Shown here piece by piece: positions 40,989 to 57,507 of a stretch of DNA of 64,000 bases. Source of the DNA: a virus (taxonomy: Duplodnaviria; Caudoviricetes); the IMG/VR virus record IMGVR_UViG_3300044655_001017; one strand, given 5' to 3'. Both the position numbers and the translations under genes were made by a program. The notes beneath the pieces are model-generated. The model saw only the letters and a list, made by a program, of their open reading frames with translations. It was not told the origin of the DNA and did not search any database. Position 1 is the first letter of the stretch. Each line of letters opens with the position of its first letter.

Positions 40989-41198
40989 CTATGCTGGCAT
41001 TACGCTTGCAATGTTACCAATTAAGTTCTGTGCAAACTCTATAGTAAAGTTGTATCGTGTGTCGCGTAATGGTTCAATAGGGATAGGTACATCAATAAAA
41101 TATGTAGTGTCTGATAGCTTACGAAGTTGTGATGGTAAAACGCCGGCATGTTTGGCTAAGGCTCTTTCTAAAGTAATGTTTGACATTGTGGTCTCCAA
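40989..41198 (-). CDS. Hypothetical protein
   Basis: GGAG RBS; stop abuts CAGCGGGGCC. Confidence 0.55.
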   Translation of the reverse strand: METTMSNITLERALAKHAGVLPSQLRKLSDTTYFIDVPIPIEPLRDTRYNFTIEFAQNLIGNIASVMPA

Positions 41199-41244
41199 AG
41201 TTTAAAAGGAAAAAGGTGTATGTTGTCATACACCTTTATGTTGT

Positions 41245-41400
41245 TTATCGTACTACGGTCCAACGTGGGCTGAATGTTTTTCCTGCGTCACGACGCTTAA
41301 TGATTTTTTTAAACTCTTTAAGTTTGAGTTCAAGTATCTTAGCTTCGTCGTTTACAAGACATGCCGCATACATCTCTGTTACTAATGTTTTCTGTTTCAT
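41245..41400 (-). CDS. 51-aa basic protein behind TATAAATA (not in ORF track)
   Basis: TATAAATA at 41420-41427 and AAGGAG RBS. Confidence 0.55.
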   Translation of the reverse strand: MKQKTLVTEMYAACLVNDEAKILELKLKEFKKIIKRRDAGKTFSPRWTVVR

Positions 41401-41431
41401 GTGTTCACTCCTTGAATAGTATTTATAGGAA

Positions 41432-41656
41432 CTATTGTTGTCCCTTTTTCTCGTATCCTTCTAATCGTGTGTTAAGGATGTTTAATTGTTTTTGTGTAAG
41501 TGAAAGTGACTCAAGCATATAACGAATGTCAGACTGTGTGTACCCATATATGAATGCCCAATTTTCTTCATTATTGAATGTTACAGAAGCTTTCCTTGCT
41601 AAGTTGTCTAAGGTTGCAATATGGTTTTCAATTACTGCGATTCTGTCTAATTTCAT
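41432..41656 (-). CDS. Hypothetical coiled-coil protein
   Basis: AGGAG RBS. Confidence 0.6.
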   Translation of the reverse strand: MKLDRIAVIENHIATLDNLARKASVTFNNEENWAFIYGYTQSDIRYMLESLSLTQKQLNILNTRLEGYEKKGQQ

Positions 41657-41707
41657 GCGATACTCCTAAAAAGAGAAAGCGCGTATTGCTACGCGCTGTT
41701 GAGTGTA

Positions 41708-42211
41708 TTAATCTTCAAATCTTAATTCGTCATACTCGAGATCAGCAAGCACGTCATCTGTTTCCCATGAGTAGTCATCGTCGTCAAAATCGTATGTATC
41801 ATCGTCATCAGTTGCATCTGGATCAGCATAGTCAAACAAGTTGTCACCACTTTCAGTGTACAAGCCGTCTTTGCTAATCACATACTCAATTACTACGTCA
41901 GCAATCGTTTCTAATGGGCCTGCTAACGGCAAATTAGTGTAGTGTGGTGTGTTGCATTCAGGTTCAACAATCTCTAACTCTTCAGCAATATCTAAGTTAA
42001 ATAGTTCATCGCAACGTGTAAGATAGTTCACAGCACCCGAGGTGTTGTTACAGAATCCGTTATTGTAATAGTCATAATATAATCGTGTTACAGCTCTTAA
42101 CATTTCGCCTTCAACTGTACCTGCAGGACCACTTGACGGAACTAGTTTAGATAGTTCTTGGTAAGCTGCTTGATGTTTTCCATTGCTGTTCCAGTAAGTG
42201 TTGTTGCTCAT
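41708..42211 (-). CDS. Hypothetical phage protein with acidic tail
   Basis: YW...G.HQ; YYDYYNNG. Confidence 0.65.
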   Translation of the reverse strand: MSNNTYWNSNGKHQAAYQELSKLVPSSGPAGTVEGEMLRAVTRLYYDYYNNGFCNNTSGAVNYLTRCDELFNLDIAEELEIVEPECNTPHYTNLPLAGPLETIADVVIEYVISKDGLYTESGDNLFDYADPDATDDDDTYDFDDDDYSWETDDVLADLEYDELRFED

Positions 42212-42314
42212 ATTATACTCTCCATTTGTTGTGTAAATAAAAACATATTATAGCAAACTGCTAGTGAATTGTAAAGAATTGTGTTAATCAATGTCCTTAA
42301 CTGGACGTACTTAA

Positions 42315-42530
42315 TTATTTGTTGAGTAACACTAAACCGTATACTAAGTCATGTTCAAGATCAATGTCGTCATACGTTAAAATAAACTCTTCACCAGTGT
42401 CTTCGTGGTGTACATGGATCTCTTCAGCATCTGCAAAATCAATTACATAAGAATCATCACCTTGTACAAGGATTTTAGCTTCGCTAAACATTTCAATTAA
42501 CTTTTCATCAGTAACAGTAACAGTAGACAT
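42315..42530 (-). CDS. Small acidic protein
   Basis: Own promoter. Confidence 0.6.
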   Translation of the reverse strand: MSTVTVTDEKLIEMFSEAKILVQGDDSYVIDFADAEEIHVHHEDTGEEFILTYDDIDLEHDLVYGLVLLNK

Positions 42531-42614
42531 TGTGTACTCCTTTGTTGTTTAAGTAAAAATATATTATAGCAAACTACTTGCTGGTTTGCAAGTAGTTTGT
42601 ATATCAACTTCTAA

Positions 42615-43013
42615 TTAGTCGTTTGACCGATCACGAACGAATACAACCCCAAGATCTGTATACGCTTCACATTGATCTTTTTTACCTGTTTTCAAATCAA
42701 CAGCCCATATATCAAAGTCATCATACACATCTTCATCAATTGTCTCTGACGTCCATACTTGTCCGTATACTCTTACTCCTACATCAACAAATTCCCCTAG
42801 CATCTCTGCTTCTTTGCAAGTTGGTAATCTCCAACCGTCACCTAAGAACTTAGCAAAGTCATCTGCATTCCACCAACGATTATAATGTTGTGTACATTCA
42901 GGGGAAATTTCAAACGGTAGTTTACCTTTTTCAAGGTCAATCATTTCAAACAGACTCGTTGCGCTTGCTTGCAAATCATTAAGTTGAGACATAATTTGTT
43001 CTTGATTAGACAT
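42615..43013 (-). CDS. Longer DUF1566-like family member
   Basis: FEISP, GWRLPT..E, WTSE, WAVDL..G, VFVRD. Confidence 0.7.
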   Translation of the reverse strand: MSNQEQIMSQLNDLQASATSLFEMIDLEKGKLPFEISPECTQHYNRWWNADDFAKFLGDGWRLPTCKEAEMLGEFVDVGVRVYGQVWTSETIDEDVYDDFDIWAVDLKTGKKDQCEAYTDLGVVFVRDRSND

Positions 43014-43326
43014 AGTGTACTCCTTTGTTGTGTAAGTAAAAATATATTATAGCAAAATGCTATTGATTTGTAAAGAACTAATTACGTCGTTTAGCTTTCG
43101 CTTGCCATGTTATTTCATTCTTACGATCTTTGTCCATACGTTTTAGTACTCGTTTCTCATCCTTAGCATACTTAATAACATTTGTACGGAGTTGGAGATA
43201 GCGATCTGCTCTCACATTATTCGCTCTAACACTTTGTCAGTTAGGCGATACAAACCATACAAAATTAGTAATGCCGATACTGATATAATCAGTTCGTGCA
43301 TTATTTGAAAAAGTTGTGGGCCAATT

Positions 43327-43563
43327 TCAATCATCATTTGCTACCTCAATAATCCTAACTTTACGATGCTTTGCAACCTTTCTTGCTTTGTGAGCTTTTA
43401 TTGTCTCACGAGCAGTATTTTCAAAATATGACGAAGCATGACCGGTATCATTATCTATGCCTACCCAAAACAATCCCCACAATTTATACTGTGGAAAATA
43501 TTCCACAGAAAGCTCGCCGGAATAATCATATGTTGGTTTTTCTAAGATTCTATATCTGCTCAT
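43327..43563 (-). CDS. Hypothetical protein
   Basis: YFPQYKLWGLFW. Confidence 0.55.
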   Translation of the reverse strand: MSRYRILEKPTYDYSGELSVEYFPQYKLWGLFWVGIDNDTGHASSYFENTARETIKAHKARKVAKHRKVRIIEVANDD

Positions 43564-43753
43564 CTGTTAACTCTCCAAACACTTCTAACTTAGAAGCAAT
43601 ACCATCTTCAACTGCCGCGTCTTGGATAGCATCTAAGAAATGAGCAAGTCCTATTGCTTCATCGGATCCCTGATTACACAACCATTCTTTTTGATTGCGT
43701 AACAATTCCCAGTTAGTGTCACTAATAACTTTTGATAACATAATGTGCTCCAC
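43550..43753 (-). CDS. Hypothetical protein
   Basis: Own promoter. Confidence 0.55.
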   Translation of the reverse strand: MEHIMLSKVISDTNWELLRNQKEWLCNQGSDEAIGLAHFLDAIQDAAVEDGIASKLEVFGELTDEQI

Positions 43754-43807
43754 AGTTGTTTAAGTAAAAACATATTATAGCAAGTTGCTAATGGATTGTA
43801 AAGATAT

Positions 43808-44185
43808 TTATTGCTCAACTTCAGTAAGTGCTAACCAAGTGTCTTCTTTTGATGTATAGATTAACTCACACTCTTCTAAAATAGTTCTGCGCTCATCTTC
43901 CGATAGCTTTAACCAATTGTCTACTTTCTCGTAACTACCAACTGCTATAGGTGGCATACGATGAGATATCCAAATAGATGCATACTTGAGATGTACAATT
44001 TGATTACTTGGATGGCTAGACATCATTGCGCCTAAAAAATCATTAGCTAACACACTTTCCCAAAAACTGCCAGGTTTGAGTCCATGTATCAGATAGTTAA
44101 GCAATGGAAGCGAGTACTCTTCCGATACATGCTCAGTCTTAAATAATGTTTCTAATCGTTGTTTGCTAAATCGTGAGATGTTCAT
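43808..44185 (-). CDS. Conserved phage hypothetical protein
   Basis: HGLKPGSFWESVLAND. Confidence 0.6.
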   Translation of the reverse strand: MNISRFSKQRLETLFKTEHVSEEYSLPLLNYLIHGLKPGSFWESVLANDFLGAMMSSHPSNQIVHLKYASIWISHRMPPIAVGSYEKVDNWLKLSEDERRTILEECELIYTSKEDTWLALTEVEQ

Positions 44186-44406
44186 ATACCAAAGTTTTCT
44201 CTAATCATTTCAGCACAAACAATCGCACCTTTTACCATAGGGTCGTCTTCATCAACTGGTTCTGATACTTCATCGCAAATACGCAATGCTTCACTAATAA
44301 TCAATTTAGCAAATTTCTCAATGCTAAATTCGTTAAACGCCTCTGCAGTTGGTTCATTTGGCATGTAACCAGCTTGCTCTGCAAAATCTCTAATTTGTTT
44401 GTTCAT
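44182..44406 (-). CDS. Hypothetical protein
   Basis: EKFAKLII..C. Confidence 0.6.
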   Translation of the reverse strand: MNKQIRDFAEQAGYMPNEPTAEAFNEFSIEKFAKLIISEALRICDEVSEPVDEDDPMVKGAIVCAEMIRENFGI

Positions 44407-44421
44407 TATTTGGTCCTCAGG

Positions 44422-44697
44422 TTAACTTGTTAATCCAACTTTTGGGAAGTAGTATTTTCTCACCCAGTCAATAGTGCCTTGGTCGCATTGAAAATCCATT
44501 GGTTCGTTTTCTTTACCGTTACGATTTTTACACCATGTATCAATATTATAGTACCAAAAGCTAGTACGAGTTTCGGTAAAAGAATGAAGTCGTTCAATGA
44601 CAGTAAGAACAGAGCCGATTAATTTAAATTCTAACATCGTGTTAGTTCTCACATTCAGGATATTGACAAAATAGATTATGTAATGGACAAACGCCAT
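44422..44697 (-). CDS. Hypothetical protein (start probably MLEFK)
   Basis: ORF track. Confidence 0.5.
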   Translation of the reverse strand: MAFVHYIIYFVNILNVRTNTMLEFKLIGSVLTVIERLHSFTETRTSFWYYNIDTWCKNRNGKENEPMDFQCDQGTIDWVRKYYFPKVGLTS

Positions 44698-44857
44698 TTA
44701 CTTTTTGATCGCAAACTTTTTTTACAACATGTTCGTTGTCCTCATTTAACCATTTATCAAATGCCTCAAAACTCTCTAAGGCTTCTTTAGGAATTGACGC
44801 GCGTCCGGACTCAACAGCCGCTTTCATCTTGTCTAAATCAAAATTAAAATCGTTCAT
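44642..44857 (-). CDS. Hypothetical Cys/His protein
   Basis: C....GVCPLHNLFCQYPEC. Confidence 0.55.
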   Translation of the reverse strand: MNDFNFDLDKMKAAVESGRASIPKEALESFEAFDKWLNEDNEHVVKKVCDQKVNGVCPLHNLFCQYPECEN

Positions 44858-45093
44858 AAGATCTCATTAGATAATGTTACAGTGCCATGGTAAGGCACCC
44901 AGGTATTGGGCATATAACGGTTTTTTTGGAGATTCCAATCAAGACCTATATAGTCTTTTGATTCTCCTTTCAAGATAGTGCTAGACGTTTCAGAAGAAAA
45001 CAAAACAATAGTACCATTTGGAAAAATTCCGAGTATTGGATACTTAATTTTTTCAATGGACTCTGTTTGATTTGTTGTTACTATAATTGCCAT
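44854..45093 (-). CDS. Hypothetical protein
   Basis: GGAG RBS. Confidence 0.55.
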   Translation of the reverse strand: MAIIVTTNQTESIEKIKYPILGIFPNGTIVLFSSETSSTILKGESKDYIGLDWNLQKNRYMPNTWVPYHGTVTLSNEIL

Positions 45094-45107
45094 TGTCTAA
45101 TCTCCTC

Positions 45108-45530
45108 TTAAGCTGTAACGGTATAGGGCCGATCCCATTTTCCAATGTTGATGTCGCAATACCAGCCTACGTCAAAGTAGTCTGTCATAATATCACTGTT
45201 ATCATGATTGCCTTCAAACATGATCTCAAAAGCTTTATCTAAAAACTCTTTAGCTTTGCCATCAAAGTGATCAGTCCAGTGATGCGACACTTGCATATAC
45301 TTGCGATCTTTATTTTGATTGTAGTCTTTTTCTTTGTCAGCTGACCAATGATTAAGTTCTGCTACACGATCTGCATGATTAGTAATGAAATCAATTTTAC
45401 CTTTTGATACATTCAACTGCAAGGTGCTGTGATGGCGCACTGCTACTGTAGCAGTCAAACCATACTGTTTAGCTAATGCTCTTAAGCGTGGTGCTTTTGA
45501 GTCTTTATCTTCTTTTGATACATAAGCCAT
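45108..45530 (-). CDS. LPD29-like domain protein
   Basis: NHDNSDIMTDYFDVGWY..INIGKWD. Confidence 0.6.
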   Translation of the reverse strand: MAYVSKEDKDSKAPRLRALAKQYGLTATVAVRHHSTLQLNVSKGKIDFITNHADRVAELNHWSADKEKDYNQNKDRKYMQVSHHWTDHFDGKAKEFLDKAFEIMFEGNHDNSDIMTDYFDVGWYCDINIGKWDRPYTVTA

Positions 45531-45600
45531 TTTTGCTACTCCGTTGTTGTGTAAGTAAAAATATATTATAACAAAGTGTAAGCTGGATTGCAAATGGTTT

Positions 45601-45837
45601 TTAAACCGTTCTTACTGGGATCGCATAATATTGATGGTCAGTATCTTTAAAAATATCTTCATTACACCAAATGAGTAAAGTTATTAAGTCTCCAGTTTCG
45701 TGTTCAAATGGTAACCGCCAATCTTTGTATCCATTCTCGTTAGATGTCATACAATAAAGAACTGCTTCATCATATGGCATCCGTTGAGGTGATTTAATAC
45801 CTACTGCCATATTAAGTTTAGTCAATTTGCACATCAA
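45601..45837 (-). CDS. mini-CLec/DUF1566-like family member
   Basis: YDEAVLYC, DWRLP, IPVRT. Confidence 0.7.
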   Translation of the reverse strand: MMCKLTKLNMAVGIKSPQRMPYDEAVLYCMTSNENGYKDWRLPFEHETGDLITLLIWCNEDIFKDTDHQYYAIPVRTV

Positions 45838-46064
45838 CTAATTTCTCATCGCGAAAAATGTAGTAAGCATCTACTCTGCCATACGACACCCAAACACAGT
45901 TGTTACCACGTTTCATTGTGAAATTAGTAACGCCTTGAGCTGCAAGACTTGCTGTGATTTGGTCTACTTCAAATTGTTGTATTTGGTCCATAATGTGCTC
46001 CGCAGTTGTTTAACTAAAAATATATTATAGCAAATTACTTACTGGTGTGCAAATGGTTTGTTAC

Positions 46065-46496
46065 TCATGTTTTAAATTGTTCCCAAAAGTTAATCTTCGC
46101 TAAGTCTTTTTCAAACTCAGGATATACATCAGCTAAGTTCTCAGCTCTAACTGGACGGTAACCGGCTTTTAGCTTTTTGTGAATACGTTGTATTGCTTCA
46201 CCGCAATACCCAGTTCTTACAATCCAACTAGCCCGAGTTGGAATACCTTTCTCTTTGATTTCGTATGCACGGTCGCTTACTGTTGACACATAATCATTCA
46301 TTACTCTAATAGATCTTAGCTTGCCACCACGCTTACCCCACACAATGATATAGTCAGTAAACTTAATTGAGGAAAATCGTGTTAATAATGATTTGTCAGA
46401 TGGCTGTCCCATACTAATTACTGCCCATACTGTTTCAACTTTTCCAGTTGTCTTTAAACTTGCAAATGTTATGTTCATAGTTTCAATGTTTCCCAA
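46065..46496 (-). CDS. Hypothetical protein, tandem paralog A
   Basis: ITFA.LKTTGKVETVW; WG.RGGKL; VYPEFEKDL. Confidence 0.7.
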   Translation of the reverse strand: MGNIETMNITFASLKTTGKVETVWAVISMGQPSDKSLLTRFSSIKFTDYIIVWGKRGGKLRSIRVMNDYVSTVSDRAYEIKEKGIPTRASWIVRTGYCGEAIQRIHKKLKAGYRPVRAENLADVYPEFEKDLAKINFWEQFKT

Positions 46497-46849
46497 AATG
46501 CAAGTTTATCTAAATCTTTTTCGAACTCTGGATATACTTCAGCTAACCGATCTGCAGAGATACTTTCATACTCTTTGTTAAGTTTCTTATTGATTAGTTT
46601 GCCAATAGTACTAAACCTACTGTAACGATCAGAGTTATAGTCTAACGATGGTGGATAATATCCTAATCGAGTCATCGATTGCAACTTGCCACCTCTTCTG
46701 CCCCAAGCAATTACATAATCAGAATACCATTCTTGTTGTTGATGTTTACCTAACTCAAGTACAACCCAAACGGTTTCTACTTTACCAGTTGTCTTTAAAC
46801 CTGCAAATGTAATTTTCATGTTAGTCCTATAAAACTTGATAGGTGGCAC
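46475..46849 (-). CDS. Hypothetical protein, tandem paralog B
   Basis: Same motifs. Confidence 0.7.
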   Translation of the reverse strand: MPPIKFYRTNMKITFAGLKTTGKVETVWVVLELGKHQQQEWYSDYVIAWGRRGGKLQSMTRLGYYPPSLDYNSDRYSRFSTIGKLINKKLNKEYESISADRLAEVYPEFEKDLDKLAFWETLKL

Positions 46850-47060
46850 GACCTCGATTAATAAATAGCTGCCGATTTGAACCTACACATCTGCAACAAT
46901 TCTTGTTACCAAGTTGAGAATGATCATTTGGCTGGAGACTACCTAAGTTAAAATCAGGAAATCTTGCCGACACTAATTCTTTTATCTTGGCATACGATAG
47001 TTCTTGGCCTTTATATGGTTGTAAGGCAACTAAAATCATATCATGATTTGTTAGCTTCAT
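46827..47060 (-). CDS. Small hypothetical, possibly winged-helix
   Basis: GGAG RBS. Confidence 0.5.
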   Translation of the reverse strand: MKLTNHDMILVALQPYKGQELSYAKIKELVSARFPDFNLGSLQPNDHSQLGNKNCCRCVGSNRQLFINRGRATYQVL

Positions 47061-47210
47061 TCTGTAACTCCTGTGCTTTTTGTTTCAATGCTTCAATTCT
47101 ATGAAAGAAATCCTCACTAAGAGGAGTTATCTGATTGTTGTAATTTATGTAATCTTCAAGTGCCTTGATTACATTGTTTTCAAATACTTCGCTCTTGAGC
47201 ACAGGGCCTC

Positions 47211-47471
47211 CTAATTGATTGTAAAATATCCAGTGCGTTTACCTTTTAGTGTATAGAAACACGCATATCGCCTACCTGGTTCATACGTGTCACTGTTAGC
47301 AGTTGCGTATACGATAAGTTCTAAGTTAGGACCACGTTCTTGCATATGAGGTCCATCTAATGTTACTTTACCATTGTGAGGTAAGTCTGTTTCAGCAATA
47401 CGAATCTTGTAGTTGTCAACTTCTACGATACGTTTCTTTACAACTGGCTTTTTAACTTTAGCGTCTGCCAT
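47211..47471 (-). CDS. Hypothetical protein
   Basis: Coupled. Confidence 0.55.
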   Translation of the reverse strand: MADAKVKKPVVKKRIVEVDNYKIRIAETDLPHNGKVTLDGPHMQERGPNLELIVYATANSDTYEPGRRYACFYTLKGKRTGYFTIN

Positions 47472-48058
47472 TATTCGTTCTCCTCAAAGTAACATTCTGG
47501 AATCATATCGTCAATGTTGAATTCTTCTTTCAACAGTTCTTCTAATGTTTCTGGATCAATGCGATCAAGTAACAACTTAATCATATACACTGGTTCAACT
47601 ACACCATCAGCTACCATTGCTACTACTGCATCTCTTGCACTGTAGGATGTTGTTGTTTCATCTGGGCGAATATAATCAGTATACTCAACTTTTGTAGCTT
47701 TTAAACGATCTGCAAGTAACAAGAATTCTGCGCAATGTTCTGACACATACCATGTGTCATCTTTTATTAAATAGAAAAACTCAGAATCATCATACCAATC
47801 TACAAACTCATGTTCAGATGCAAACTCATGTGCTTCAATATCATCTTCGTTGCGATCGCGTCCGTAAAACTCAGTATCTTCAATTGTTTCGCCTAATGAG
47901 CTTATGTCACCTAGATCACATAAATCGCCTACACCAATTAAGTCATAGTTCTCAATAAGTGTTTTACCAACATGTGATAAGTATCCGTCCCAATGACAAT
48001 ATACTGCACGGACAGTACCATCGTTTCTCATATAACCAATTGCGCTACGTGTTGCCAT
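47471..48058 (-). CDS. Conserved phage protein (M.TRS..G...YCHWDGY type)
   Basis: Motif plus AGGAG RBS. Confidence 0.7.
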   Translation of the reverse strand: MATRSAIGYMRNDGTVRAVYCHWDGYLSHVGKTLIENYDLIGVGDLCDLGDISSLGETIEDTEFYGRDRNEDDIEAHEFASEHEFVDWYDDSEFFYLIKDDTWYVSEHCAEFLLLADRLKATKVEYTDYIRPDETTTSYSARDAVVAMVADGVVEPVYMIKLLLDRIDPETLEELLKEEFNIDDMIPECYFEENE

Positions 48059-48145
48059 GTTATGCTCCTGTATATACAGCAGGGCCTTGCTTGCTGTAGT
48101 GTTTAAAAAAATATAGTATAACAACTATTTGTTGATTTGTAAAGA

Positions 48146-48418
48146 CTATTTTACTTCACGTACCGGAACTGCCTTATTCTGCATAGCCGGTTCAACTTTA
48201 AAGAAATAATTGTTTTCATAATAAGCTTCTAAAGGCATTGTAGTTGTAGACGAATATTGCCATTCGTCTACCGTAGGTAACCTCCAATCATTATGCCCAT
48301 TATGATTACAGGTAAGGCAATACAGCCAAGCCTCTTCATAGTTGTTTACTATACGTGGCGGAGCACGATCAATCTTATAATCAATAATCATATGTCCCTT
48401 ACTGGTTGGCAGAACCAC
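48146..48418 (-). CDS. mini-CLec/DUF1566-like family member
   Basis: EAWLYC, DWRLPT, VPVRE. Confidence 0.75.
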   Translation of the reverse strand: MVLPTSKGHMIIDYKIDRAPPRIVNNYEEAWLYCLTCNHNGHNDWRLPTVDEWQYSSTTTMPLEAYYENNYFFKVEPAMQNKAVPVREVK

Positions 48419-48597
48419 TCTAGTTCCAGTTCTGGAAATCTATCTTCAAACCAACTCATTGTTATTTTAGAAGTTTCATATTCTCGATAAGTTGGCAATC
48501 GCCAATCTTTATGCCCATTATAGTCAAGTGTTAGGCAGTGCAGCCAAGCTTGGTCATGACTCATATCTTTTTCTATTTTTGGTGCATATTCAATCAT
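48388..48597 (-). CDS. mini-CLec/DUF1566-like family member
   Basis: AWLHC, DWRLPT, QPVRD. Confidence 0.75.
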   Translation of the reverse strand: MIEYAPKIEKDMSHDQAWLHCLTLDYNGHKDWRLPTYREYETSKITMSWFEDRFPELELEWFCQPVRDI

Positions 48598-49106
48598 TTT
48601 ATATCCCTTACTGGTCTAACGTATAGGCCACCGTGGAACTTAAAGTTAGGGTATCTGCTACCATTTTCAAAACTCTGACTCCAAGCAGTATCTACACTTT
48701 GTTCATTAGAAGCCCAGTATCGACCACTACGAAAATCATTATCTGATTCATAGATTTGATTTAGTTCTTCTTTTGTTGGAAGTCGCCAATCAGTTTTTCC
48801 ATCAAAGTTAAGAAATAAACAATATGTTCGTGCAGTATCCCAACTACATGACTCCTCGGCAGATTTTGGTGCTATTTCAATATTCATATTATTCTCTTCT
48901 ACCGACCATTCTACATAGTCAATCAAATTTTGAATATCGCTGCGTAGGACTGTTGCACGGCATTGCCATTGATTATTCTCGGTTACGAGTTTGTCTTCGA
49001 GTGATTCAGAAGTAGCTAAAAGATTATTGAGTTTTAGTATTAGGATTTCTTTATGTGATAGGGATTTTCTCATCGTAGTTCTCCAGTTAAGTTTTGCATA
49101 TGGCAA
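48594..49106 (-). CDS. Coiled-coil fused to a full DUF1566 domain with drifted VR-like end
   Basis: Internal MNIEIAP; YWASNE..AW...F..G...K...YVRPVRD. Confidence 0.8.
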   Translation of the reverse strand: MPYAKLNWRTTMRKSLSHKEILILKLNNLLATSESLEDKLVTENNQWQCRATVLRSDIQNLIDYVEWSVEENNMNIEIAPKSAEESCSWDTARTYCLFLNFDGKTDWRLPTKEELNQIYESDNDFRSGRYWASNEQSVDTAWSQSFENGSRYPNFKFHGGLYVRPVRDIK

Positions 49107-49143
49107 TTATCAGTTCAAGCACCGTTAGGTGCGACTTCAAAGT

Positions 49144-49437
49144 TCATATTATGTCCCTTATTGCTCTAACGTAGTAGCTGCCGCCGTTCTTACTGGAGCT
49201 GAACTGGGTGCCACTGGTGAAAACCTGACCCCAGGCGCTGCTGCCATTGTACTCAGTAGAGGACCAGTAGTAGGCATCAATGAAATCATTTTTTGAATGG
49301 TAGATATAATCTAATTCCTCTTTAGTAGGCAGTCTCCATCCTTTCTTTCCATCTATTTCAAGAAAAAAACAATACATAACTGCTTCATCCCACGTGGCTT
49401 GTATCTCCGTTGTTTTTGGTGCTATTTCAATATTCAT
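49144..49437 (-). CDS. DUF1566 (Lcl C-terminal, CLec fold) protein; candidate DGR target
   Basis: GWRLPTKEEL, YWSSTE, AWGQVF..G, K, YVRAIR; C-terminal codons NNY, ~57% GC. Confidence 0.85.
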   Translation of the reverse strand: MNIEIAPKTTEIQATWDEAVMYCFFLEIDGKKGWRLPTKEELDYIYHSKNDFIDAYYWSSTEYNGSSAWGQVFTSGTQFSSSKNGGSYYVRAIRDII

Positions 49438-49781
49438 GTTATGTCCCTTACTGGAATCGCAGTAAACAGTTCGTCAAGATCAAAGTCGTCAACGGTATCT
49501 TCGTGTGTCCAAAACCCCCAATGATCAGCATCAAACCAATAGGAATTAAACTCCTCTAACTCTGGAAGGACTTCGGGATTCTCAAAATCATTACCCGGAT
49601 CTACTGTGTTTACTAACATGTCAGCTTCTTCATTAGTTGGCAATCGCCATCCTTTCTTTCCATCAATTTCAAGGAATAGGCAATACATTGCTCCTTGGTC
49701 GTAAGGAGTGTCTGCTAACCATTTGTCGCGTGGTGCTATTTCAAAGTTCATTTTATGTCCCTCACAGGTTTTACATACCAC
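49434..49781 (-). CDS. mini-CLec/DUF1566-like member with acidic insert
   Basis: MNFEIAP, GWRLPT, IPVRD. Confidence 0.75.
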   Translation of the reverse strand: MVCKTCEGHKMNFEIAPRDKWLADTPYDQGAMYCLFLEIDGKKGWRLPTNEEADMLVNTVDPGNDFENPEVLPELEEFNSYWFDADHWGFWTHEDTVDDFDLDELFTAIPVRDIT

Positions 49782-49990
49782 TTGCGTTTAGTAATCTCAG
49801 CATCTTTATACCAAGAGTTCCCATCTACAAATTCATGAAAGGTCGGAAGTCGCCATCCTTTCTTACCATTGTAAGTAAACCAGAAGCAATACATTATTGC
49901 TTCATCATAAGTCATTTTGTTTTCGGATCTTGGTCCATGTTCTACGTGTGCCATAGTTATGTACTCCGTAAGGTTTGTAAATAAAAACAT
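49748..49990 (-). CDS. mini-CLec/DUF1566-like family member
   Basis: YDEAIMYC, GWRLPT, KPVRD. Confidence 0.75.
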   Translation of the reverse strand: MFLFTNLTEYITMAHVEHGPRSENKMTYDEAIMYCFWFTYNGKKGWRLPTFHEFVDGNSWYKDAEITKRKWYVKPVRDIK

Positions 49991-50027
49991 ATTATAGCAA
50001 AATATTTATTAGTAAGCAAATGGTAAT

Positions 50028-50246
50028 TTAGTCAGAGTCCCGCACTGGGGTTACTTTGAAAAGATCAGATGTTGATGATCTAACATCATCTTGATGCCAT
50101 CCCCATATTTTGACAGAAGAATTATATTCTTCTCTTGTAGGTAGTCTCCATCCTTTTTTGCCGTCTACAATAAGAAAAAAGCAGTACATCATTGCTTCAT
50201 CGTATGTAAATTGTTTATCAATTGTTGGTAATATTTCTATGCTCAT
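50028..50246 (-). CDS. mini-CLec/DUF1566-like family member
   Basis: YDEAMMYC, GWRLPT, TPVRD. Confidence 0.75.
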   Translation of the reverse strand: MSIEILPTIDKQFTYDEAMMYCFFLIVDGKKGWRLPTREEYNSSVKIWGWHQDDVRSSTSDLFKVTPVRDSD

Positions 50247-50427
50247 GTTACAGCGGGGCCTATAGTTCGAACTGGTAATACAAATGCTGGAAAGTTATTC
50301 TTCCGTGAAGCGGCATGCCATCCGTGTATGTATGGATCATTACGAAATTCATATGGGGTAAACATTCGCCAATCATACATGTCTTTATATGTACAGGTAG
50401 CACAGTATAACCATGCGCTGTCTCAAT
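50243..50427 (-). pseudogene. 5'-truncated mini-CLec gene
   Basis: AWLYCATCTYKDMYDWRM...LPVRT in frame, preceded by in-frame TGA; no MIE start. Confidence 0.7.
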
Positions 50428-50486
50428 CCATTTTATAGTTAGAATAATCTAAGTATTCTAAGTGTGTATTGTAAGCTAAATCTCTT

Positions 50487-50699
50487 CTAATCATTTACAT
50501 CTCTCACTGGTAGTACCTGGGCTATTAAATGCGACACGCCGGTGACTTCAAACCATTTTTCTCTTGGTTTATACTCTATAAACTCACGTCGTGTCATCAT
50601 TCTCCAATCATACTTATTGTAGAGAGTAGTAGTGATACAAAAGAGCCAGGCTTCATCGTATGTTAGAAAATGATCAGAACCTATTCCTGATTCAATCAT
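50487..50699 (-). CDS. mini-CLec/DUF1566-like family member
   Basis: YDEAWLFC, DWRM, LPVRD. Confidence 0.75.
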   Translation of the reverse strand: MIESGIGSDHFLTYDEAWLFCITTTLYNKYDWRMMTRREFIEYKPREKWFEVTGVSHLIAQVLPVRDVND

Positions 50700-50706
50700 A
50701 ATAATC

Positions 50707-51411
50707 CTATTTTGTTCTAATTACAAACCCACTAGTGTCTTTACGTGCGCGACCTTTTGCCTTAAGACCTACAATTACACCTGTCGGATCAAGGAATCGT
50801 AAGTCAGTGTCGTCGCCATCAAATACAGTCATACCATCGTATGTTGCTGGAGTTTTATCAAATACATAAGCAACATTCATACCGTTAGCAATAGCATAAT
50901 CAACCTCTGCTTGATTAGACTCGCCTCTAGAGAATGTTAAATGATAGTTATGGATGTGTCCAACTTTACGATGCAACACCTTAGTGTAGTCGTAGAATTG
51001 AACAGTTGGAAATAGTTCAAAGATATTCTTACCGTTAATTTTGTATTTCTCCCATGAGAGATCACTTGTGCCATTGAGGCGAAATACAGGAATAAGACCT
51101 TTCTTTGTAGCTTGTTTGATTGCACGTTGGATGTCAAGCACTAGAGCTTCTAAGAAGCTGTCGCGTCCGGTAGCAAACCATTTTGTTTTGCGTATGCGAG
51201 CTTGTTGAACTACACTGTCTTCAATGTCAGTGTACATGCCGCCGTGACCTGAAGTGTTTAGGCAACCTATTTTGCAACCTAGTGTTGCTTTTGGGCAAGT
51301 GTTGATAACACCACTGAGATCAGATGGTGATAAGTGTAAGACATAAGTAGCATATCCTAATTTAACACCTTTTTGTGTTTTGATGTTGCTAGTTGATAGT
51401 AAAAGAAACAC
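50707..51411 (-). CDS. GP88-like phage protein
   Basis: CP.A..GC..GCL, RLNGTSDL.WE, FYDYTK, HLTFS, DGD..D.RF.D...VGLKAKG. Confidence 0.7.
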   Translation of the reverse strand: MFLLLSTSNIKTQKGVKLGYATYVLHLSPSDLSGVINTCPKATLGCKIGCLNTSGHGGMYTDIEDSVVQQARIRKTKWFATGRDSFLEALVLDIQRAIKQATKKGLIPVFRLNGTSDLSWEKYKINGKNIFELFPTVQFYDYTKVLHRKVGHIHNYHLTFSRGESNQAEVDYAIANGMNVAYVFDKTPATYDGMTVFDGDDTDLRFLDPTGVIVGLKAKGRARKDTSGFVIRTK

Positions 51412-51480
51412 TGTAAGCTCCGCGTGTTAGTAAGTAAAAACATATTATAACAAACTACACGCGGATGTGCAAGCAGTTAT

Positions 51481-52527
51481 TTATTCATCCTCTTCGTGCC
51501 AAGCGTCTTCATACTTTTGAATTAAGTCTTGAATTTGGCTATCATCGAGATGTGTAAGTGCCTCTTTGAGAAACTTAGAAATTACTGCTTCAGGTTGGCC
51601 TTCAAGATAACTTAGTAAGATATCTGTTTTACTAAATTCATCTTCAAATAGTTCTTTTTGTTTAAAGAACCCTGTTGCTTTTAAATAAGCAATAGCTTCT
51701 GCTTTAGTTGAACCGCCAGTGTATTCAAATACACTGTCCGTAGTTTCACACCAGTTATTAGACCAATCTGGAATAATCGCTTCTAAATACTCTGAGATGG
51801 GTTGAAAATCAAGATATTCGTGGTCATCCCAAAACTTTTGCGATACTACATTGATAGTAGGAGCGTCGTTAGGGAACCATGCACCAGTGAACTGATATAG
51901 ATACTGAGTGTATACATGGTAGGCATCACGATCATCTTGTTCTTGATCTTTTTCAGCATCAGTCTTTTTAACACCTACACCAAATACCTTTTTAGCGGCA
52001 GTATCAAGAATATCTTTTAATGGAATCTTAATAGTACCTGGAGTACTTGTTATTGTCGTAGTAGCTGGATTTGCTGTATCGTCATCATCGATTTCAGGTA
52101 ACTCAGGTTCAACGTATTCCCATGTGCCGGTGCCAATCTCATCTTCAGGTTGTAATTCGAATGGACTAGTTAGTTCTAGCTCAATCTGAGTTAAGCCAAT
52201 TCCATCTGCAACCGATTCATAGAGTGTTGCCTTTTTGCTAGGCGTAAGATATTTGATTAAATGATTAAACTCTTGTTCAAATAACATAGTTGTTTGAAAG
52301 TTACGAGCAGTTGGCTGCAGTAATCCTTCGTCAATTGAATAGTAATAACCGTATACTGCCATAACAGGATCAAGATTAGTCTGTAAGAATGTAATAAACT
52401 TATTTGATAATTTAGGATTATCATGTACTTGTTGAGCTAACTCTTTAATAACTGAAGCTTGCATGTCTGATGGCAATGATTTTATATCGCCGTGTACGTT
52501 ATCAAAAATGGTTATTTCTGCTGTCAT
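51481..52527 (-). CDS. Large acidic hypothetical protein
   Basis: 348 aa, AGGAG RBS. Confidence 0.65.
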   Translation of the reverse strand: MTAEITIFDNVHGDIKSLPSDMQASVIKELAQQVHDNPKLSNKFITFLQTNLDPVMAVYGYYYSIDEGLLQPTARNFQTTMLFEQEFNHLIKYLTPSKKATLYESVADGIGLTQIELELTSPFELQPEDEIGTGTWEYVEPELPEIDDDDTANPATTTITSTPGTIKIPLKDILDTAAKKVFGVGVKKTDAEKDQEQDDRDAYHVYTQYLYQFTGAWFPNDAPTINVVSQKFWDDHEYLDFQPISEYLEAIIPDWSNNWCETTDSVFEYTGGSTKAEAIAYLKATGFFKQKELFEDEFSKTDILLSYLEGQPEAVISKFLKEALTHLDDSQIQDLIQKYEDAWHEEDE

Positions 52528-52529
52528 AG

Positions 52530-52745
52530 TTACTCCTGTGAGGTATGGTTATAGATAAAAAGTTGTACTTCTGCTTCTTGAGATACTTCGCTGTCATCTC
52601 TATCTGCTCCACATTCATTGCAATGGTGTTGTTTTACTGATCTTAGATATGCATGTGAGCAATCACAATCCCAATATGAATAATTTAAAATCATATCATC
52701 AATAACCATTACATTATCTCCTTGCGGATTTGTTCCAATTAGCAT
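52530..52745 (-). CDS. Zn-finger protein, paralog of 38476
   Basis: YWDCDC...HCNEC. Confidence 0.6.
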   Translation of the reverse strand: MLIGTNPQGDNVMVIDDMILNYSYWDCDCSHAYLRSVKQHHCNECGADRDDSEVSQEAEVQLFIYNHTSQE

Positions 52746-52783
52746 TGTAACTCCTTGTGTTGTTGTAAAGTGTTTATTATATA

Positions 52784-53044
52784 TTAGTGTGTTTTATTTG
52801 TCAAACGGTATTCTATCCGAATAGAGTCCCAAGGCAATCCGTCAATTACATTATTAGGGATTAATGTCAGTGAGCGGTATATTTGATCGTGATTAGGAAT
52901 GATAATGCGTCGTTCAATCTTTTCAGAATCTGCTAAATCAGTTAGCATCCTTGCAAAATCATATGGATCACATCTACACAGGTCGTAAAGTTCTATTGGA
53001 GTCTTTGCACCAGATTGAAGTGCAGATAAGATAATTTTTTGCAT
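52784..53044 (-). CDS. Hypothetical, possibly winged-helix
   Basis: AGGAG RBS. Confidence 0.55.
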   Translation of the reverse strand: MQKIILSALQSGAKTPIELYDLCRCDPYDFARMLTDLADSEKIERRIIIPNHDQIYRSLTLIPNNVIDGLPWDSIRIEYRLTNKTH

Positions 53045-53151
53045 AACTTCTCCTTTTTACTGTGTGAATGTTTAAAACAAATTAAAGTATAAAGTAAACT
53101 TTACAATTTGTCAACTGAAAGTTTACTCTATACATGTTACAGCGGGGCCTT

Positions 53152-54231
53152 TTACCAGAACTTTACTTTTTTAAGTGCTTTATTCATTTCATTTGCTGCG
53201 CGATCGGCTGCTTCTCTAGCTTCGTTAGCTACACGATCTGCTTCTCTAGCTGCACTTTCTGCGGCTTCTTGTGCTGCTCTAGTTGCTCGTTCAGATGCTT
53301 CTTGTGCTTCTCTAATTGCTCTTTCAGATGCTTCTTGTGCTTCTCTAGCTGCGCGTTGTGCTTGCTCAAGTGCTTCTCTAGCTGCACGATCTGCTTGTTC
53401 TTGAGCTGCTCTTGCAATGCGATTAGCTTCTTCATTAGCAATGCGGGCAGCTTCTTGAGCTTCTTTAGCAACAATTTCCGCTTGCTCATGCGCAAAACGA
53501 GCTGACTCTAATGCTGCTTGATCAACTGCGTCTACAACTGGAGTAGTATCAACTGATAATTCAGCATTAAATTCTACACCAGCTAATAACTCTATTTCAC
53601 CTTCTACACCTATGCTAACGGTATTGCCGTGTACAGTTGCACCACCTCCAACTTCTGCACCAGCTTGTAATCCAATACTAACACCTGCACCTGCTTCAGC
53701 AGTTACGCCATGGCTTTCTGCTACTGCATTAGCTTCTACACCAACACTTGCACCTACTGATGCTCCTGCGTGTCCTTCTGCGCCATGTAACCCGACTGAT
53801 GCTTCGGCTTCAACACCGGCATGAGCTTCAGCATACGCGCCACCCGAAACACTAACTGTACCAACATCTTCATTACCAACTGATGCACTTGCTCCAACTT
53901 CAGCACGAGCTTCAACACTTGCACTAGCTTCAACAACTACATCTGTACCTGTCCATCCTGCACTTGCTTCAGCAGTAGCTTCAACTTCTGCAGTAGCGTG
54001 TGCTTCAGCTTCTAATGTAACATCACCTACTGTAACACTTGCACCGGCTTCTGCGCCAATACTTGCACCTGCGTGTGCTTCTGCTGATGCGCTTGTATCA
54101 GTTACTTCCGCACTTGCACCTGCGTGTGCTTCGGCATATACATCAGCATGTGATTCTTCTGTTATTGTTACGCCATTAAGCGTAACTGACTCTTCTTGGC
54201 TTACACCTGTACCTACTTCTTCTTTTGACAT
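53152..54231 (-). CDS. Ala/Glu/Gly/Val-rich beta-repeat protein with C-terminal coiled coil
   Basis: AEAHAGAS repeats; AAREA.EA.ERA heptads; CTAAATA at 54253-54259. Confidence 0.75.
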   Translation of the reverse strand: MSKEEVGTGVSQEESVTLNGVTITEESHADVYAEAHAGASAEVTDTSASAEAHAGASIGAEAGASVTVGDVTLEAEAHATAEVEATAEASAGWTGTDVVVEASASVEARAEVGASASVGNEDVGTVSVSGGAYAEAHAGVEAEASVGLHGAEGHAGASVGASVGVEANAVAESHGVTAEAGAGVSIGLQAGAEVGGGATVHGNTVSIGVEGEIELLAGVEFNAELSVDTTPVVDAVDQAALESARFAHEQAEIVAKEAQEAARIANEEANRIARAAQEQADRAAREALEQAQRAAREAQEASERAIREAQEASERATRAAQEAAESAAREADRVANEAREAADRAANEMNKALKKVKFW

Positions 54232-54262
54232 AACACTCTCCTTATTGTCTGCTATTTAGCTA

Positions 54263-54697
54263 TCAATAAGTCCACTGCGCAAACTGCTTAAAGAAACGTG
54301 TTATAGGTCCATTGTAATAGTTATACTCATCTTCTGTAACATCTCTTACTAAAACTAATTCTAATGGAGCTCTGAGTGAATTCCAATCAGAGAAATGTCT
54401 AATTACTGATAGGTTCGAACAGTATATAGCTTCATTCATTGTAGGTAGTCGCCATCCTCTCTTTCCATCATGCTTACTCAGCATAAACAAATGCATCGTT
54501 GCTTCATCAGCACTAGAACATAATAGTCCAGTATAAACGATTTCAATGATTTTTTTCTCATAGTGATTAACCGGGACTCCTACAACATAACGCACTCTGT
54601 TGTCGCCATAAGGATTCGTAGGTACGTCAAATTTTAAATATACATTACAATTGAATATTCGGTTAAACCATTTCATATTTGTTCCCTTACTGGACAA
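54263..54697 (-). CDS. mini-CLec/DUF1566-like member with N- and C-terminal extensions
   Basis: IIEI, DEA, GWRLPT, LVRD. Confidence 0.7.
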   Translation of the reverse strand: MSSKGTNMKWFNRIFNCNVYLKFDVPTNPYGDNRVRYVVGVPVNHYEKKIIEIVYTGLLCSSADEATMHLFMLSKHDGKRGWRLPTMNEAIYCSNLSVIRHFSDWNSLRAPLELVLVRDVTEDEYNYYNGPITRFFKQFAQWTY

Positions 54698-54882
54698 ACA
54701 ATTCGAAACTTCTTTACAGTTTTTGCGTTTTCATACCAACCAAGTAATTCATTTCTGCTAGCCCATTCTTTATGAGTTGGCATGCGCCAATCCTTGTGCC
54801 CATTATGTTCTAATATAAGACAGTATACCCATGCTTCGTCATATGTTAGCTGAGGGAAGAACGTTGGGGCGAATTCTATCAT
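54673..54882 (-). CDS. mini-CLec/DUF1566-like family member
   Basis: YDEAWVYC, DWRMPT, CPVRE. Confidence 0.75.
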   Translation of the reverse strand: MIEFAPTFFPQLTYDEAWVYCLILEHNGHKDWRMPTHKEWASRNELLGWYENAKTVKKFRIVCPVREQI

Positions 54883-55232
54883 CCTCTACGCATCCGTGAA
54901 ATCTCAGTTGCTTGCTCTTGGTTGATAACAGGAACTAAATTACTTTTGTGCATTTGCGCACATCCTTTAATCAAAGTACCTGTATACTTAGGAGGTTCAA
55001 TACGACTGCCGCCACCTTTAGTAGTTGTAACTAAACTGGGAGGTTTACTATCACTACCTCTATATGTTGGTGCAGGCGGAGTATATGACTGTTTCTTAAG
55101 TGCGTCTTTAAGAGATTTAGAACTAGATGGTTTGGTAGATAATCCGTGTTGCTTTGCCATAGCTAACCATTGCTTCTCAGCTTCTAATGCTTTACGCTTT
55201 TCTTCAGCTGATTTATACTTTGTTTTTTTCAT
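54879..55232 (-). CDS. Conserved T4-like-phage basic protein
   Basis: YTGTLIKG...MHKSNLVPV....A.EISRMRR. Confidence 0.6.
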   Translation of the reverse strand: MKKTKYKSAEEKRKALEAEKQWLAMAKQHGLSTKPSSSKSLKDALKKQSYTPPAPTYRGSDSKPPSLVTTTKGGGSRIEPPKYTGTLIKGCAQMHKSNLVPVINQEQATEISRMRRG

Positions 55233-55464
55233 TTATATCCCTCACTGGTATAATAAAACAGGTTGCATTATAGTTTAACCACGCAGCGTTAGGCCTACCA
55301 ATATAGTCAACTATATCCCATGTATCAAAGAATTCTAATTTCATTCGTTCGTCATATGTTGGCATCCTCCAATCATACTTGTTATTATGAGTTAGGGTAG
55401 CACAGTACAACCATGCTTCGTCACATGTTATCTTGTGCGGCGATTCGTCTGCATGCTCAATCAT
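55213..55464 (-). CDS. mini-CLec/DUF1566-like family member
   Basis: DEAWLYC, DWRMPT, IPVRD. Confidence 0.75.
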   Translation of the reverse strand: MIEHADESPHKITCDEAWLYCATLTHNNKYDWRMPTYDERMKLEFFDTWDIVDYIGRPNAAWLNYNATCFIIPVRDINEKNKV

Positions 55465-55756
55465 GCTTAGTCCTTACTGCCAATACACGTCCGCGATTGT
55501 GAGGATCGTGTGATGACGGATTGTCTAAATCATCTTGTGTCCACACATACTTTGGTTTGTATATAAACGAATTACACCGAGTTGCTTCTCTGAGAGCATA
55601 AATCTCATCTACTTCACTACTAGTGGGTAATCGCCATCCTTTCTTTCCTTCAAACTCTAAGAATGTACAATACATAACTGCTTCATGTAAAGACATCCTG
55701 TTAGGATTTGGATCTACTGGTAGATAATGTACACTTAATGGTTTATGATATTTCAT
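55457..55756 (-). CDS. mini-CLec/DUF1566-like family member
   Basis: EAVMYC, GWRLPT, AVRT. Confidence 0.75.
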   Translation of the reverse strand: MKYHKPLSVHYLPVDPNPNRMSLHEAVMYCTFLEFEGKKGWRLPTSSEVDEIYALREATRCNSFIYKPKYVWTQDDLDNPSSHDPHNRGRVLAVRTKHD

Positions 55757-55980
55757 AAATCTCTCACTGGGTATATGTGATAGCTGAAAAATCTATCGTT
55801 ATCAATTCTTCCTTGATGCCATGCCATATACGCTAAAGGACCTTCAACCCATTCGTCTGGAGTAGGAAATCGCCAGTCTGCATGCCCATCATGGACTAGA
55901 GTAATTACATACAAAAAAGCTGCATCGCGATTATATAATTTCCGACTGATCCCAGGTGGATTAGATAATATTTCTATCAT
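55753..55980 (-). CDS. mini-CLec/DUF1566-like family member
   Basis: DWRFPT, YPVRD. Confidence 0.75.
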   Translation of the reverse strand: MIEILSNPPGISRKLYNRDAAFLYVITLVHDGHADWRFPTPDEWVEGPLAYMAWHQGRIDNDRFFSYHIYPVRDL

Positions 55981-56288
55981 TTGTCTCTCACTGCAACTGC
56001 TATACCTGTTTTACGATTTTCATATGGTTCAATCATAGCTTCTATAGCTTGCTGGGTATGGTTGTATTGTTTTGCAAGCAATGCTCGTTCTTCATTCGTA
56101 CTCTCTCGATACCATGTATTAGTTGTAAGTCTGCCATCTGCAGTATCTGCCCATTCAAGTAAAGTTGGCAACCGCCAGCCTTTCTTTCCTTGGTGATCTA
56201 AAAACAAACAATACATAACAGCTTCGGCATACGTTATAAATTTTGATTGACAAGTGGCTACTAGCATATGGCTCCTTACATAAAACAT
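55977..56288 (-). CDS. mini-CLec/DUF1566-like family member
   Basis: EAVMYC, GWRLPT, AVRD. Confidence 0.75.
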   Translation of the reverse strand: MFYVRSHMLVATCQSKFITYAEAVMYCLFLDHQGKKGWRLPTLLEWADTADGRLTTNTWYRESTNEERALLAKQYNHTQQAIEAMIEPYENRKTGIAVAVRDK

Positions 56289-56326
56289 TATTATAGCGCA
56301 AAACTTAGGACTTTACAAATGGTATT

Positions 56327-56551
56327 TTAATCAGCAGTGCGCACTGGACATATTTTATGTGTTACTTTAGCTATCTTAAGACCTTCATCATTCTGATCAA
56401 ACGCATCGCAATCAATTGCTTCGTAATCACAAAATTCTTCTTCAGTTGGTATGCGCCAGTCATACTTGTTATTATATGTTAGTGTAGCACAGTATAGCCA
56501 GGCATCATCAAATGAGAACCGGCCGGCTGGCATTGGGGCAATCTCAAGCAT
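56327..56551 (-). CDS. mini-CLec/DUF1566-like family member
   Basis: DDAWLYC, DWRIPT, CPVRT. Confidence 0.75.
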   Translation of the reverse strand: MLEIAPMPAGRFSFDDAWLYCATLTYNNKYDWRIPTEEEFCDYEAIDCDAFDQNDEGLKIAKVTHKICPVRTAD

Positions 56552-56813
56552 CTTTAGTTCTCACTGGTTGTACAACTCTTATTGATAAGAATTTTAAACT
56601 TTTTACCGTTGGTAAGCTGTTTAGATTGCTATCTCTAAAATCATCTTCATCCGAGTCATCATATGCTGATAGTGAAATTCCATCAATATCTTCATATTCG
56701 TCATGGGTTGGAATACGCCAATCGTATTTGTTATCGTGTATACAGGTAGCGCAGTATAGCCATGCTTCGTCGTAATTTAGATATTCATTTAATATAGGTG
56801 CAATCTCAAGCAT
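56544..56813 (-). CDS. mini-CLec/DUF1566-like family member
   Basis: YDEAWLYC, DWRIPT, QPVRT. Confidence 0.75.
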   Translation of the reverse strand: MLEIAPILNEYLNYDEAWLYCATCIHDNKYDWRIPTHDEYEDIDGISLSAYDDSDEDDFRDSNLNSLPTVKSLKFLSIRVVQPVRTKDA

Positions 56814-57024
56814 CTTTAGTTCTCACTGGTTGTACACGCCAATGGCTAGGACGTGGTTCGTCTGATTGATCAAAGGATTCTTCATCAATTTCGTCGTTGT
56901 ATGTAAACTCGTAATCAGTTGGAATACGCCAATCATATTTGTTATTATGAGTTAGAGTAGCACAGTACAACCAAGCGTCGTCATATGACATCTTATAATC
57001 AGATAGTGGTGCTAGTTCAATCAT
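56806..57024 (-). CDS. mini-CLec/DUF1566-like family member
   Basis: YDDAWLYC, DWRIPT, QPVRT. Confidence 0.75.
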   Translation of the reverse strand: MIELAPLSDYKMSYDDAWLYCATLTHNNKYDWRIPTDYEFTYNDEIDEESFDQSDEPRPSHWRVQPVRTKDA

Positions 57025-57034
57025 AATTTCTCCT

Positions 57035-57507
57035 ATTAGGTATAAAGGACTAAAGTCCTAAATTATAATAATTTTATATTCGTTGGCACTCATATCAATT
57101 ATTATAATTTTATTTTCTTTCTTTGAATATTTTGTTAGATTTAGAAGTCATATTGGCCCGCAAAGGCCAATGGAACATTTGTTGAGTTTCTTCATGTCTT
57201 AGCATTAGAGCATTACAGAGGCGGTCATCCGGTACCTCGAGCTCCGTCCTGGTTTTTATATGACGGCGGACTAATTATACAATGCTAACCATATAATCAG
57301 TCGTAAGGGTGTTACCCTTTCTTTTAACCTTATGTGTACAGCGGGGCCATAACCTGTAATGAGTTTTGTAAAGGTACATCTCATGTTCATCCAAATGGGT
57401 AGGTGGTTATGTCGTTGCTACAGTTCAACAATTCCATCACTGTGATACATCTGTCCAGTTATAGGGCGCATAGATAATACAGTTTGCGCGACACCTGCTG
57501 TAGTTAT
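57035..57507 (-). ncRNA. Candidate large structured ncRNA or leader
   Basis: ORF-free ~480 nt with many nested helices downstream of TTGACA-N17-TATAGT. Confidence 0.55.

Follow-up and report, generated by a model that had tools for sequence, protein, structure and literature searches.

A template-matched variable region, probably orphaned and frozen, in a small C-type-lectin-fold gene of a T4-like lake jumbo phage

The prototype diversity-generating retroelement (DGR) is the mtd-avd-TR-brt system of Bordetella phage BPP-1, whose target is the tail-fibre tip. [quoted passage not shown] The gene considered here lies in a 64,000-nucleotide stretch of DNA from a virus of the Caudoviricetes (IMG/VR record IMGVR_UViG_3300044655_001017), referred to below as the window. 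Like BPP-1, the system has its VR at the C-terminal face of a C-type-lectin fold, AAY codons in the template and substitutions at adenines only, and related lake contigs carry the target, avd, TR and RT in that order. Unlike BPP-1, the window target is a 97-aa stand-alone mini-lectin in the early-gene array of a T4-like jumbo phage, and the window copy lacks a nearby cassette, an IMH-like 3' end and a significant hairpin and shows no diversity at the level of contigs.

Other parallels are found outside Bordetella phages. DUF1566 or CLec2 targets of "category d" were described by Wu et al. 2018, and about half of them are short, DUF1566-only proteins (PMC5758913). The same paper describes non-adjacent DGR targets and trans complementation, and remote targets are not expected for phage DGRs by its authors (PMC5758913). 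As in these targets and in the Legionella pneumophila DGR with LdtA, the window VR overlaps DUF1566/Lcl_C, and the fold matches the Legionella Lcl C-terminal domain; LdtA, however, is a bacterial surface lipoprotein, whereas the window protein comes from a phage, has no signal peptide and carries an orphan VR. The DGR of Treponema denticola (TvpA family) has one TR and several paralogous targets, a situation resembled by the many TR-like scaffolds in three lake-phage sequences (G002, L009 and L096), but the Treponema targets share one genome with their cassette, while G002 and the window have TR-written VRs with no RT found. Among GenBank phages, the RTs nearest to that of the lake cassette belong to DGRs of temperate Burkholderia, Pseudomonas and Shewanella phages (e.g., phage Magia), those among the closest sharing 44-48% identity across 88-97% of the protein; Bordetella phages occur only among the 114 GenBank matches, all of which are below 60% identity. 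The temperate phages are 42-57 kb in size, whereas the lake cassette is borne on an accessory island that also contains genes for a sulfotransferase and a glycosyl/methyltransferase, in one case on a 271-kb scaffold. In a survey that covered 224 jumbo phages, no C-type-lectin domains of the DGR (FGS) type were reported (PMC7824862). The type of system is a known one; what is unusual is an orphan, frozen VR whose template lives in other, co-occurring phages.

The mini-lectin gene and its variable region

The features of the locus are collected in Table 1. The product of the gene matches Pfam Lcl_C/DUF1566 (PF07603) with E 4.7e-13 and 49.9 bits, above the gathering cut-off of 34.9 bits for this family, and has neither a signal peptide nor a fused domain. 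Its AlphaFold2 model (pLDDT 94.2) has as top PDB match the C-terminal domain of Legionella Lcl (8q4e, TM 0.85; Foldseek 8q4e_A, E 3e-6), followed by snake C-type lectins and C-type lectin-like proteins. The VR occupies the C-terminal part of the domain and covers the last strands of the predicted fold, as in known DGR targets. Megablast of window positions 48-52 kb gave no match among GenBank phages. Most likely, this gene contributes one variant to a repertoire of small, cytoplasmic candidate lectin-fold binders that are expressed early in infection.

Table 1. Features in and around the mini-lectin gene (window positions).
Feature	Position	Strand	Basis or remark
Mini C-type-lectin-fold (DUF1566/Lcl_C) gene	49144..49437	-	97 aa, stand-alone; Pfam Lcl_C and AlphaFold2/PDB match
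VR, 113 nt, colinear with the TR of the L037-type DGR cassette (allele TTC-AAC)	49163..49275	-	Codons 55-92 of 97
17 nt directly upstream of the TR-matching tract	49276..49292	-	ATT GAT where the TR has GTT GGT
Gene 3' terminus (..I R D I I stop), as in the window's own paralogs; unequal-crossover site	49144..49162	-	Alignment, loose ends
5-bp GCACC/GGTGC hairpin after the stop codon, not significant	49119..49132	-	Fold compared with shuffles
Neighbouring paralog, 158-170 aa, AT-rich, not TR-like	48594..49106	-	Pfam Lcl_C, E 2.5e-15

An initial annotation of the window, made from the letters alone, had pointed to a gene tail of about 57% GC with NNY codon endings, and a recount agrees with it. 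GC content is 0.55-0.57 from codon 58 (TGG) on, and 56% for codons 58-90, compared with 0.34-0.35 over the first 57 codons. In the 32 codons from TCC to GTT, 27 end in C or T, none ends in A, and the five that end in G encode E, W, Q, Q and K; the 57 upstream codons include 21 that end in A and 26 that end in C or T (Fisher p = 1.8e-5 for A-ending and 3.3e-4 for C/T-ending codons). A scan of all 32-codon frames in minus-strand open frames of at least 60 aa found only 10 of 12,892 with no NNA and at least 26 NNY codons, and all 10 overlap at ~49.2 kb. The GC-rich NNY tail is real and is unique within the window.

When the gene is compared with its paralogs in G002 (a 327-kb relative, estimated to be 92% complete) and L009 (a further relative), third-position identity is 86-97% in the C-terminal segment and 54-61% upstream, while codon positions 1-2 are less conserved in the VR segment than upstream. 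Repeated overwriting from one AAY-rich template would give this inverted pattern of conservation. The template was inferred from the paralog comparison and then searched as an exact pattern. Its match in the metagenome collection is a 1,822-bp lake contig (L037), on which the 3' end of a VR-containing DUF1566 target is followed by a bAvd-like gene, the TR and the RT; the TR equals the template inferred from the paralogs. The same pattern had one match in IMG/VR viral contigs, which is unrelated, and none in 185,579 bacterial and archaeal genomes, so that there is no sign of a host-borne TR in that set. The template proposed in the initial annotation nearly equals the real TR but had AAC at one codon where the TR has GGC. 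The copy differing only at adenines, which that annotation had expected near an RT and an avd gene, exists on L037; none was found in the window, in G002 or in G001, the closest relative described below.

The VR and the L037 TR differ at 23 positions, and all 23 are among the 48 adenines of the TR (A>G 12, A>T 7, A>C 4); none of the 65 non-adenine positions is mismatched (hypergeometric P = 5.3e-11 for the confinement to adenines). Similarity to the TR drops at once on both flanks. Three TR alleles are distinguished at codons 16-17 (TTC-AAC, ATG-AAT and ATG-TCA) in the lake cassettes, of which only TTC-AAC explains the window VR, the others fitting less well. The assignment of the tract to a DGR, made at the outset from its composition, is borne out by this colinear TR beside bAvd and RT genes and by mismatches at adenines only; judged by the match of template and copy, 49163..49275 is a genuine DGR variable region.

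An origin that involves no DGR, with the segment taken from a GC-richer donor or shaped by selection, is very improbable. Horizontal transfer can yield a local jump in GC, but the tract lines up with a TR whose neighbours are a DGR-type RT and Avd, its mismatches fall at adenines only and its third codon positions are preserved. The upstream part of the gene is native-like: its upstream 162 nt are 72-79% identical to paralogs of both phage clades compared, which argues that the whole gene is not a recent import. The GC-richer donor without a DGR is effectively refuted by the adenine-only TR/VR match.

The retroelement and where it resides

The RT of the cassette matches RVT_1 (E 2e-13) and phrog_1423 (E 9e-100) and contains the motifs IGNLSSQ and YVDD; an RT with both motifs lies beside the TR on L037 and on L096-L102. 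The Avd matches phrog_3206, "Avd protein of DGR" (E 1e-14), as well as bAvd and NF033474, and at least 23 contigs of ENA, JGI or Logan origin encode an identical Avd protein, one of them a scaffold of 271,688 bp. In the cassette contigs the order is constant: an Lcl_C target, Avd, TR and an RT of 371-379 aa. Past the RT, on the opposite strand, are sulfotransferase and glycosyl/methyltransferase genes; in related lake jumbo phages, the cassette forms part of an accessory island. By best alignment, the cassettes are 85-98% identical to one another. The flank of one cassette contig (L098) is 93% identical to G002 at 19.6-20.7 kb, and G002 itself lacks the island. Cognate VRs vary at adenine sites between contigs that share the identical Avd, which indicates that the element is active in those phages.

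Several further observations concern these cassettes. The TR is polymorphic among L037 and L096-L103, with one extra AAC codon in the TR of L100, and some cognate VRs differ in length from their own TR by one codon in either direction, the L037 target being one codon short. Adjoining the DGR on the 271-kb scaffold is a gene (L096:3352-4344) for a 330-aa protein with two Lcl_C domains, each containing a TR-like segment; these domains are possible candidates for extra targets of the active element. A separate 20.9-kb IMG/VR contig bears a DGR of its own (L039:3989-4903), whose RT shares 69% identity with the fragment of the L037 RT that served as query; in the comparison of its TR (from 4799) and VR (from 3989) with the lake TR, 76 of 105 positions match.

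The initial annotation held that the TR and RT are absent from the window, and TR scans, tblastn and Pfam/PHROG profiles all confirm this. The search was extended to relatives, principally G001, an 88.6-kb IMG/VR fragment that is 93-97% identical to window positions 16267-64000 and adds 39 kb past the window end, and G003, a complete, 372,173-bp genome with terminal repeats that is 88-91% identical to the window in conserved genes. Adenine-tolerant scans of the window, G001, G002 and G003 found no TR, and tblastn with the RT and Avd found no match in the window, G001 or G002. Profile searches with PF00078 and phrog_1423 detected no DGR RT in G001-G005, the complete G003 among them, and none of the YxDD-motif ORFs of G001 and G002 is an RT by comparison with Pfam. 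No counterpart of the genes flanking the DGR island occurs in the window or in G001-G004, so that synteny gives no "empty site" in the window phage. From 103 kb of the roughly 370-kb genome, together with the relatives, we infer that the retroelement is absent from the window phage and that its VR is an orphan. A separate locus of G002 (L028:4770-6455, at 204770-206455 of that genome) encodes a 561-aa fibre-like protein with an Mtd_N domain, and has no lectin VR and no nearby TR.

A frozen copy and its flanks

The VR region is identical in G001 (161 of 161 positions). Logan contigs of runs X2, X6 and X13, which come from separate studies, span the VR with no differences and have SNPs on both sides of it; the contig from run X20 covers the VR only partly. 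In 15 public contigs (JGI, ENA and Logan), six of which were selected via a neighbouring gene and not via the VR protein, no VR position is mismatched (0/113), while the flanks diverge by 0.1-7.6%, mostly 0.1-2.6%. Thus population diversity confined to the VR was not seen in G001, the three runs or the 15 contigs at the level of contigs, which drop rare variants, so that the invariance applies to that level and not to low-frequency variants. The VR copy is fixed, or frozen, in the window phage population at contig level.

The gene itself comes and goes. Three of nine neighbour-anchored public contigs are without exactly this gene (window 49144-49455), and loose ends CTGGAATTGCAG at 49160 in runs X6 and X20 represent the same deletion form; the presence and absence of the gene fits unequal crossover between repeated ..GTAAGGGACATAA gene ends. 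In one strain variant (L111:377-978), two more full-length DUF1566 paralogs directly follow the VR gene, and neither is TR-like.

The initial annotation had called the gene an active hypermutated member of its family, a description that is not supported, the VR being DNA-invariant in every gene-carrying contig from many samples. For the gene to be a currently active, remote target of a DGR elsewhere in the same roughly 370-kb genome, which we consider improbable, the element would have to lie in the ~250 kb of the window phage genome outside the searched part, and no RT was detected in the complete relative G003. Action on non-adjacent targets is described for DGRs (PMC5758913), and the lack of any non-adenine mismatch between VR and TR indicates recent writing, but the VR is invariant across all contigs and samples and the gene has no IMH-like 3' end. 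A cassette is present in run X1, the probable source sample, on a 3,636-bp contig that is ~94% identical to L037 and, by its length, is probably L101, which has the ATG-TCA allele; that allele cannot give TTC. The X1 cassette contig has roughly one sixth the depth of the VR gene contig (33 vs 190). Corresponding depths are 8 vs 288 in run X18 and 3-7 vs 23 in run X15, so that cassette contigs are 3-36 times shallower in the three runs with both, where depths taken from Logan contigs are rough and a poor basis for ranking. The exact VR protein is found in nine blocks with contigs above 0.2 Mb (e.g., 266 kb and 372 kb). These large contigs lack the exact Avd, which occurs on only one contig of more than 0.2 Mb, a different scaffold.

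The upstream flank of the VR carries a trace of its history. A 41-nt run at 49252..49292 is identical to a paralog of another phage clade, clade B (L009:6239-6526), that is only ~76% identical to the window gene outside this run. The ATT GAT within the run departs from the TR by G-to-A changes. In the remaining VR the two genes differ at adenine sites, and their TR alleles of origin are different. The 41-nt identity points to shared ancestry or to recombination of VR cassettes between phage lineages and, together with the different TR alleles, would imply a VR cassette history that is common to phage lineages and was rewritten more than once.

The downstream flank is of another kind. VR/TR homology ends at ..GTTAGAGC; the cognate targets then continue with CCACCCGGAGATCA, the TR with CCACCTAGAGATTA and the window gene with AATAAGGGACATAA. 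Neither the sequence 3' of the TR nor the 3' end of cognate targets, where the IMH would lie, is homologous to the 3' end of the window gene, and IMH-type 3' homology with the TR is therefore lacking in this gene. IMH requirements are known from phage BPP-1 and not for the L037-type cassette. A paralog-type 3' end without the cognate IMH-like sequence could explain why the VR is frozen. The hairpin just past the stop codon, to which a role as a DGR cruciform had been assigned at first, does exist, but its fold z is -0.68 and 49 of 200 shuffles fold equally well, which gives no support to such a role.

These flanks also bear on whether the DGR of a co-infecting jumbo phage wrote its cDNA straight into the resident gene. 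Such trans-genomic homing would account for a match at all non-adenine TR sites even though the cassette backbones (the L098 flank that resembles G002) are distant from the window at the DNA level; both phage types occur in the same lake runs, and in work cited in PMC5758913, avd-TR-brt functions in trans from a plasmid. However, the identity with the clade-B paralog runs 17 nt past the TR-like tract and includes non-TR bases, which recombination or shared descent fits better, and the 3' end is without the cognate IMH-like sequence. Direct writing in trans is accordingly given little weight here.

The surrounding paralogs are not retired copies of the VR. At least 41 mini-DUF1566 ORFs are recognized in the window (HMM, E < 1e-3), roughly in line with the ~46 counted at first; they lie at 20792-26042 and 38764-58737 on the minus strand and are about 68-170 aa long. 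Their common plan is an N-terminal half (..YC..G..DWRLPT..) and an end in PVRD or VRD, with a short, very variable stretch between these anchors. The full C-terminal module is present in only two genes, and 39 of the 41 lack the VR scaffold. Apart from the VR gene, the only window gene with the full YW.S..AW.Q..G..K..YVR module is the neighbour at 48594..49106, which over 105 nt has mismatches to the TR at 20 of 62 non-adenine positions and 21 adenine sites, along with six NNA codons. Archiving of mutagenized copies through duplication, as had been proposed, is thus not upheld: without the scaffold in 39 of 41, and with 20 non-adenine mismatches in the full-length neighbour, the window paralogs are not archived VRs.

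G002 and L009 have many paralogs of the same 96-aa type. In G002, which has no RT, more than 10 TR-scaffold paralogs (loci L018-L034) are located at 230-240, 324.7, 148.9, 109 and 97.6 kb, and the non-adenine mismatches of G002 paralogs to the TR number 0, 2, 3, 6, 6, 7, 12, 16, 19 and 21. Going by these counts, the series looks like a decay of DGR-written tips and fits repeated writing followed by drift, so that the idea of retirement and drift has some support in G002 and none in the window. A syntenic gene of L009 and G002, considered as a case of divergence in the VR only, differs over its whole length and represents a paralog swap rather than DGR activity.

Origin and meaning of the probable orphan copy

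The preferred reading, with a probability of roughly 0.78, is that 49163..49275 is a product of adenine-specific mutagenic retrohoming that is now orphaned and frozen. Two routes may have led to it. In the favoured one, the VR cassette would have come by recombination from a DGR-bearing, co-infecting relative, by way of the conserved blocks that flank the VR. In the other, homing would have occurred in an ancestor and been followed by loss of the island or of the 3' recognition sequence. By either route, the copy would now be locked by its native, paralog-type 3' end, in which a cognate IMH-like sequence is lacking. Import by recombination, or homing in an ancestor with later loss, is favoured over direct homing in trans, which keeps a small share of the probability.

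It is tentatively suggested, as a broader proposal that is more doubtful than the reading of this one gene, that DGR-written cassettes move between jumbo-phage genomes, or are written across them, such that the retroelement of a minority lineage supplies diversified lectin tips to co-infecting lineages, through homing in trans or through recombination of VR cassettes. If this is true, the recipient lineages keep these tips as frozen genes, and the mini-lectin arrays of lake jumbo phages would have been built in part by hit-and-run DGR activity.

The locus links a DGR to stand-alone, apparently non-structural mini-lectin genes of T4-like lake jumbo phages. Active and frozen VRs derived from one template provide a natural pair for testing the substrate requirements of DGRs. 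Surveys that require RT, TR and VR on one contig would miss orphan VRs of this kind and would underestimate the DGR-written gene content of phages, since the footprint of a DGR can outlive its retroelement or travel beyond it.
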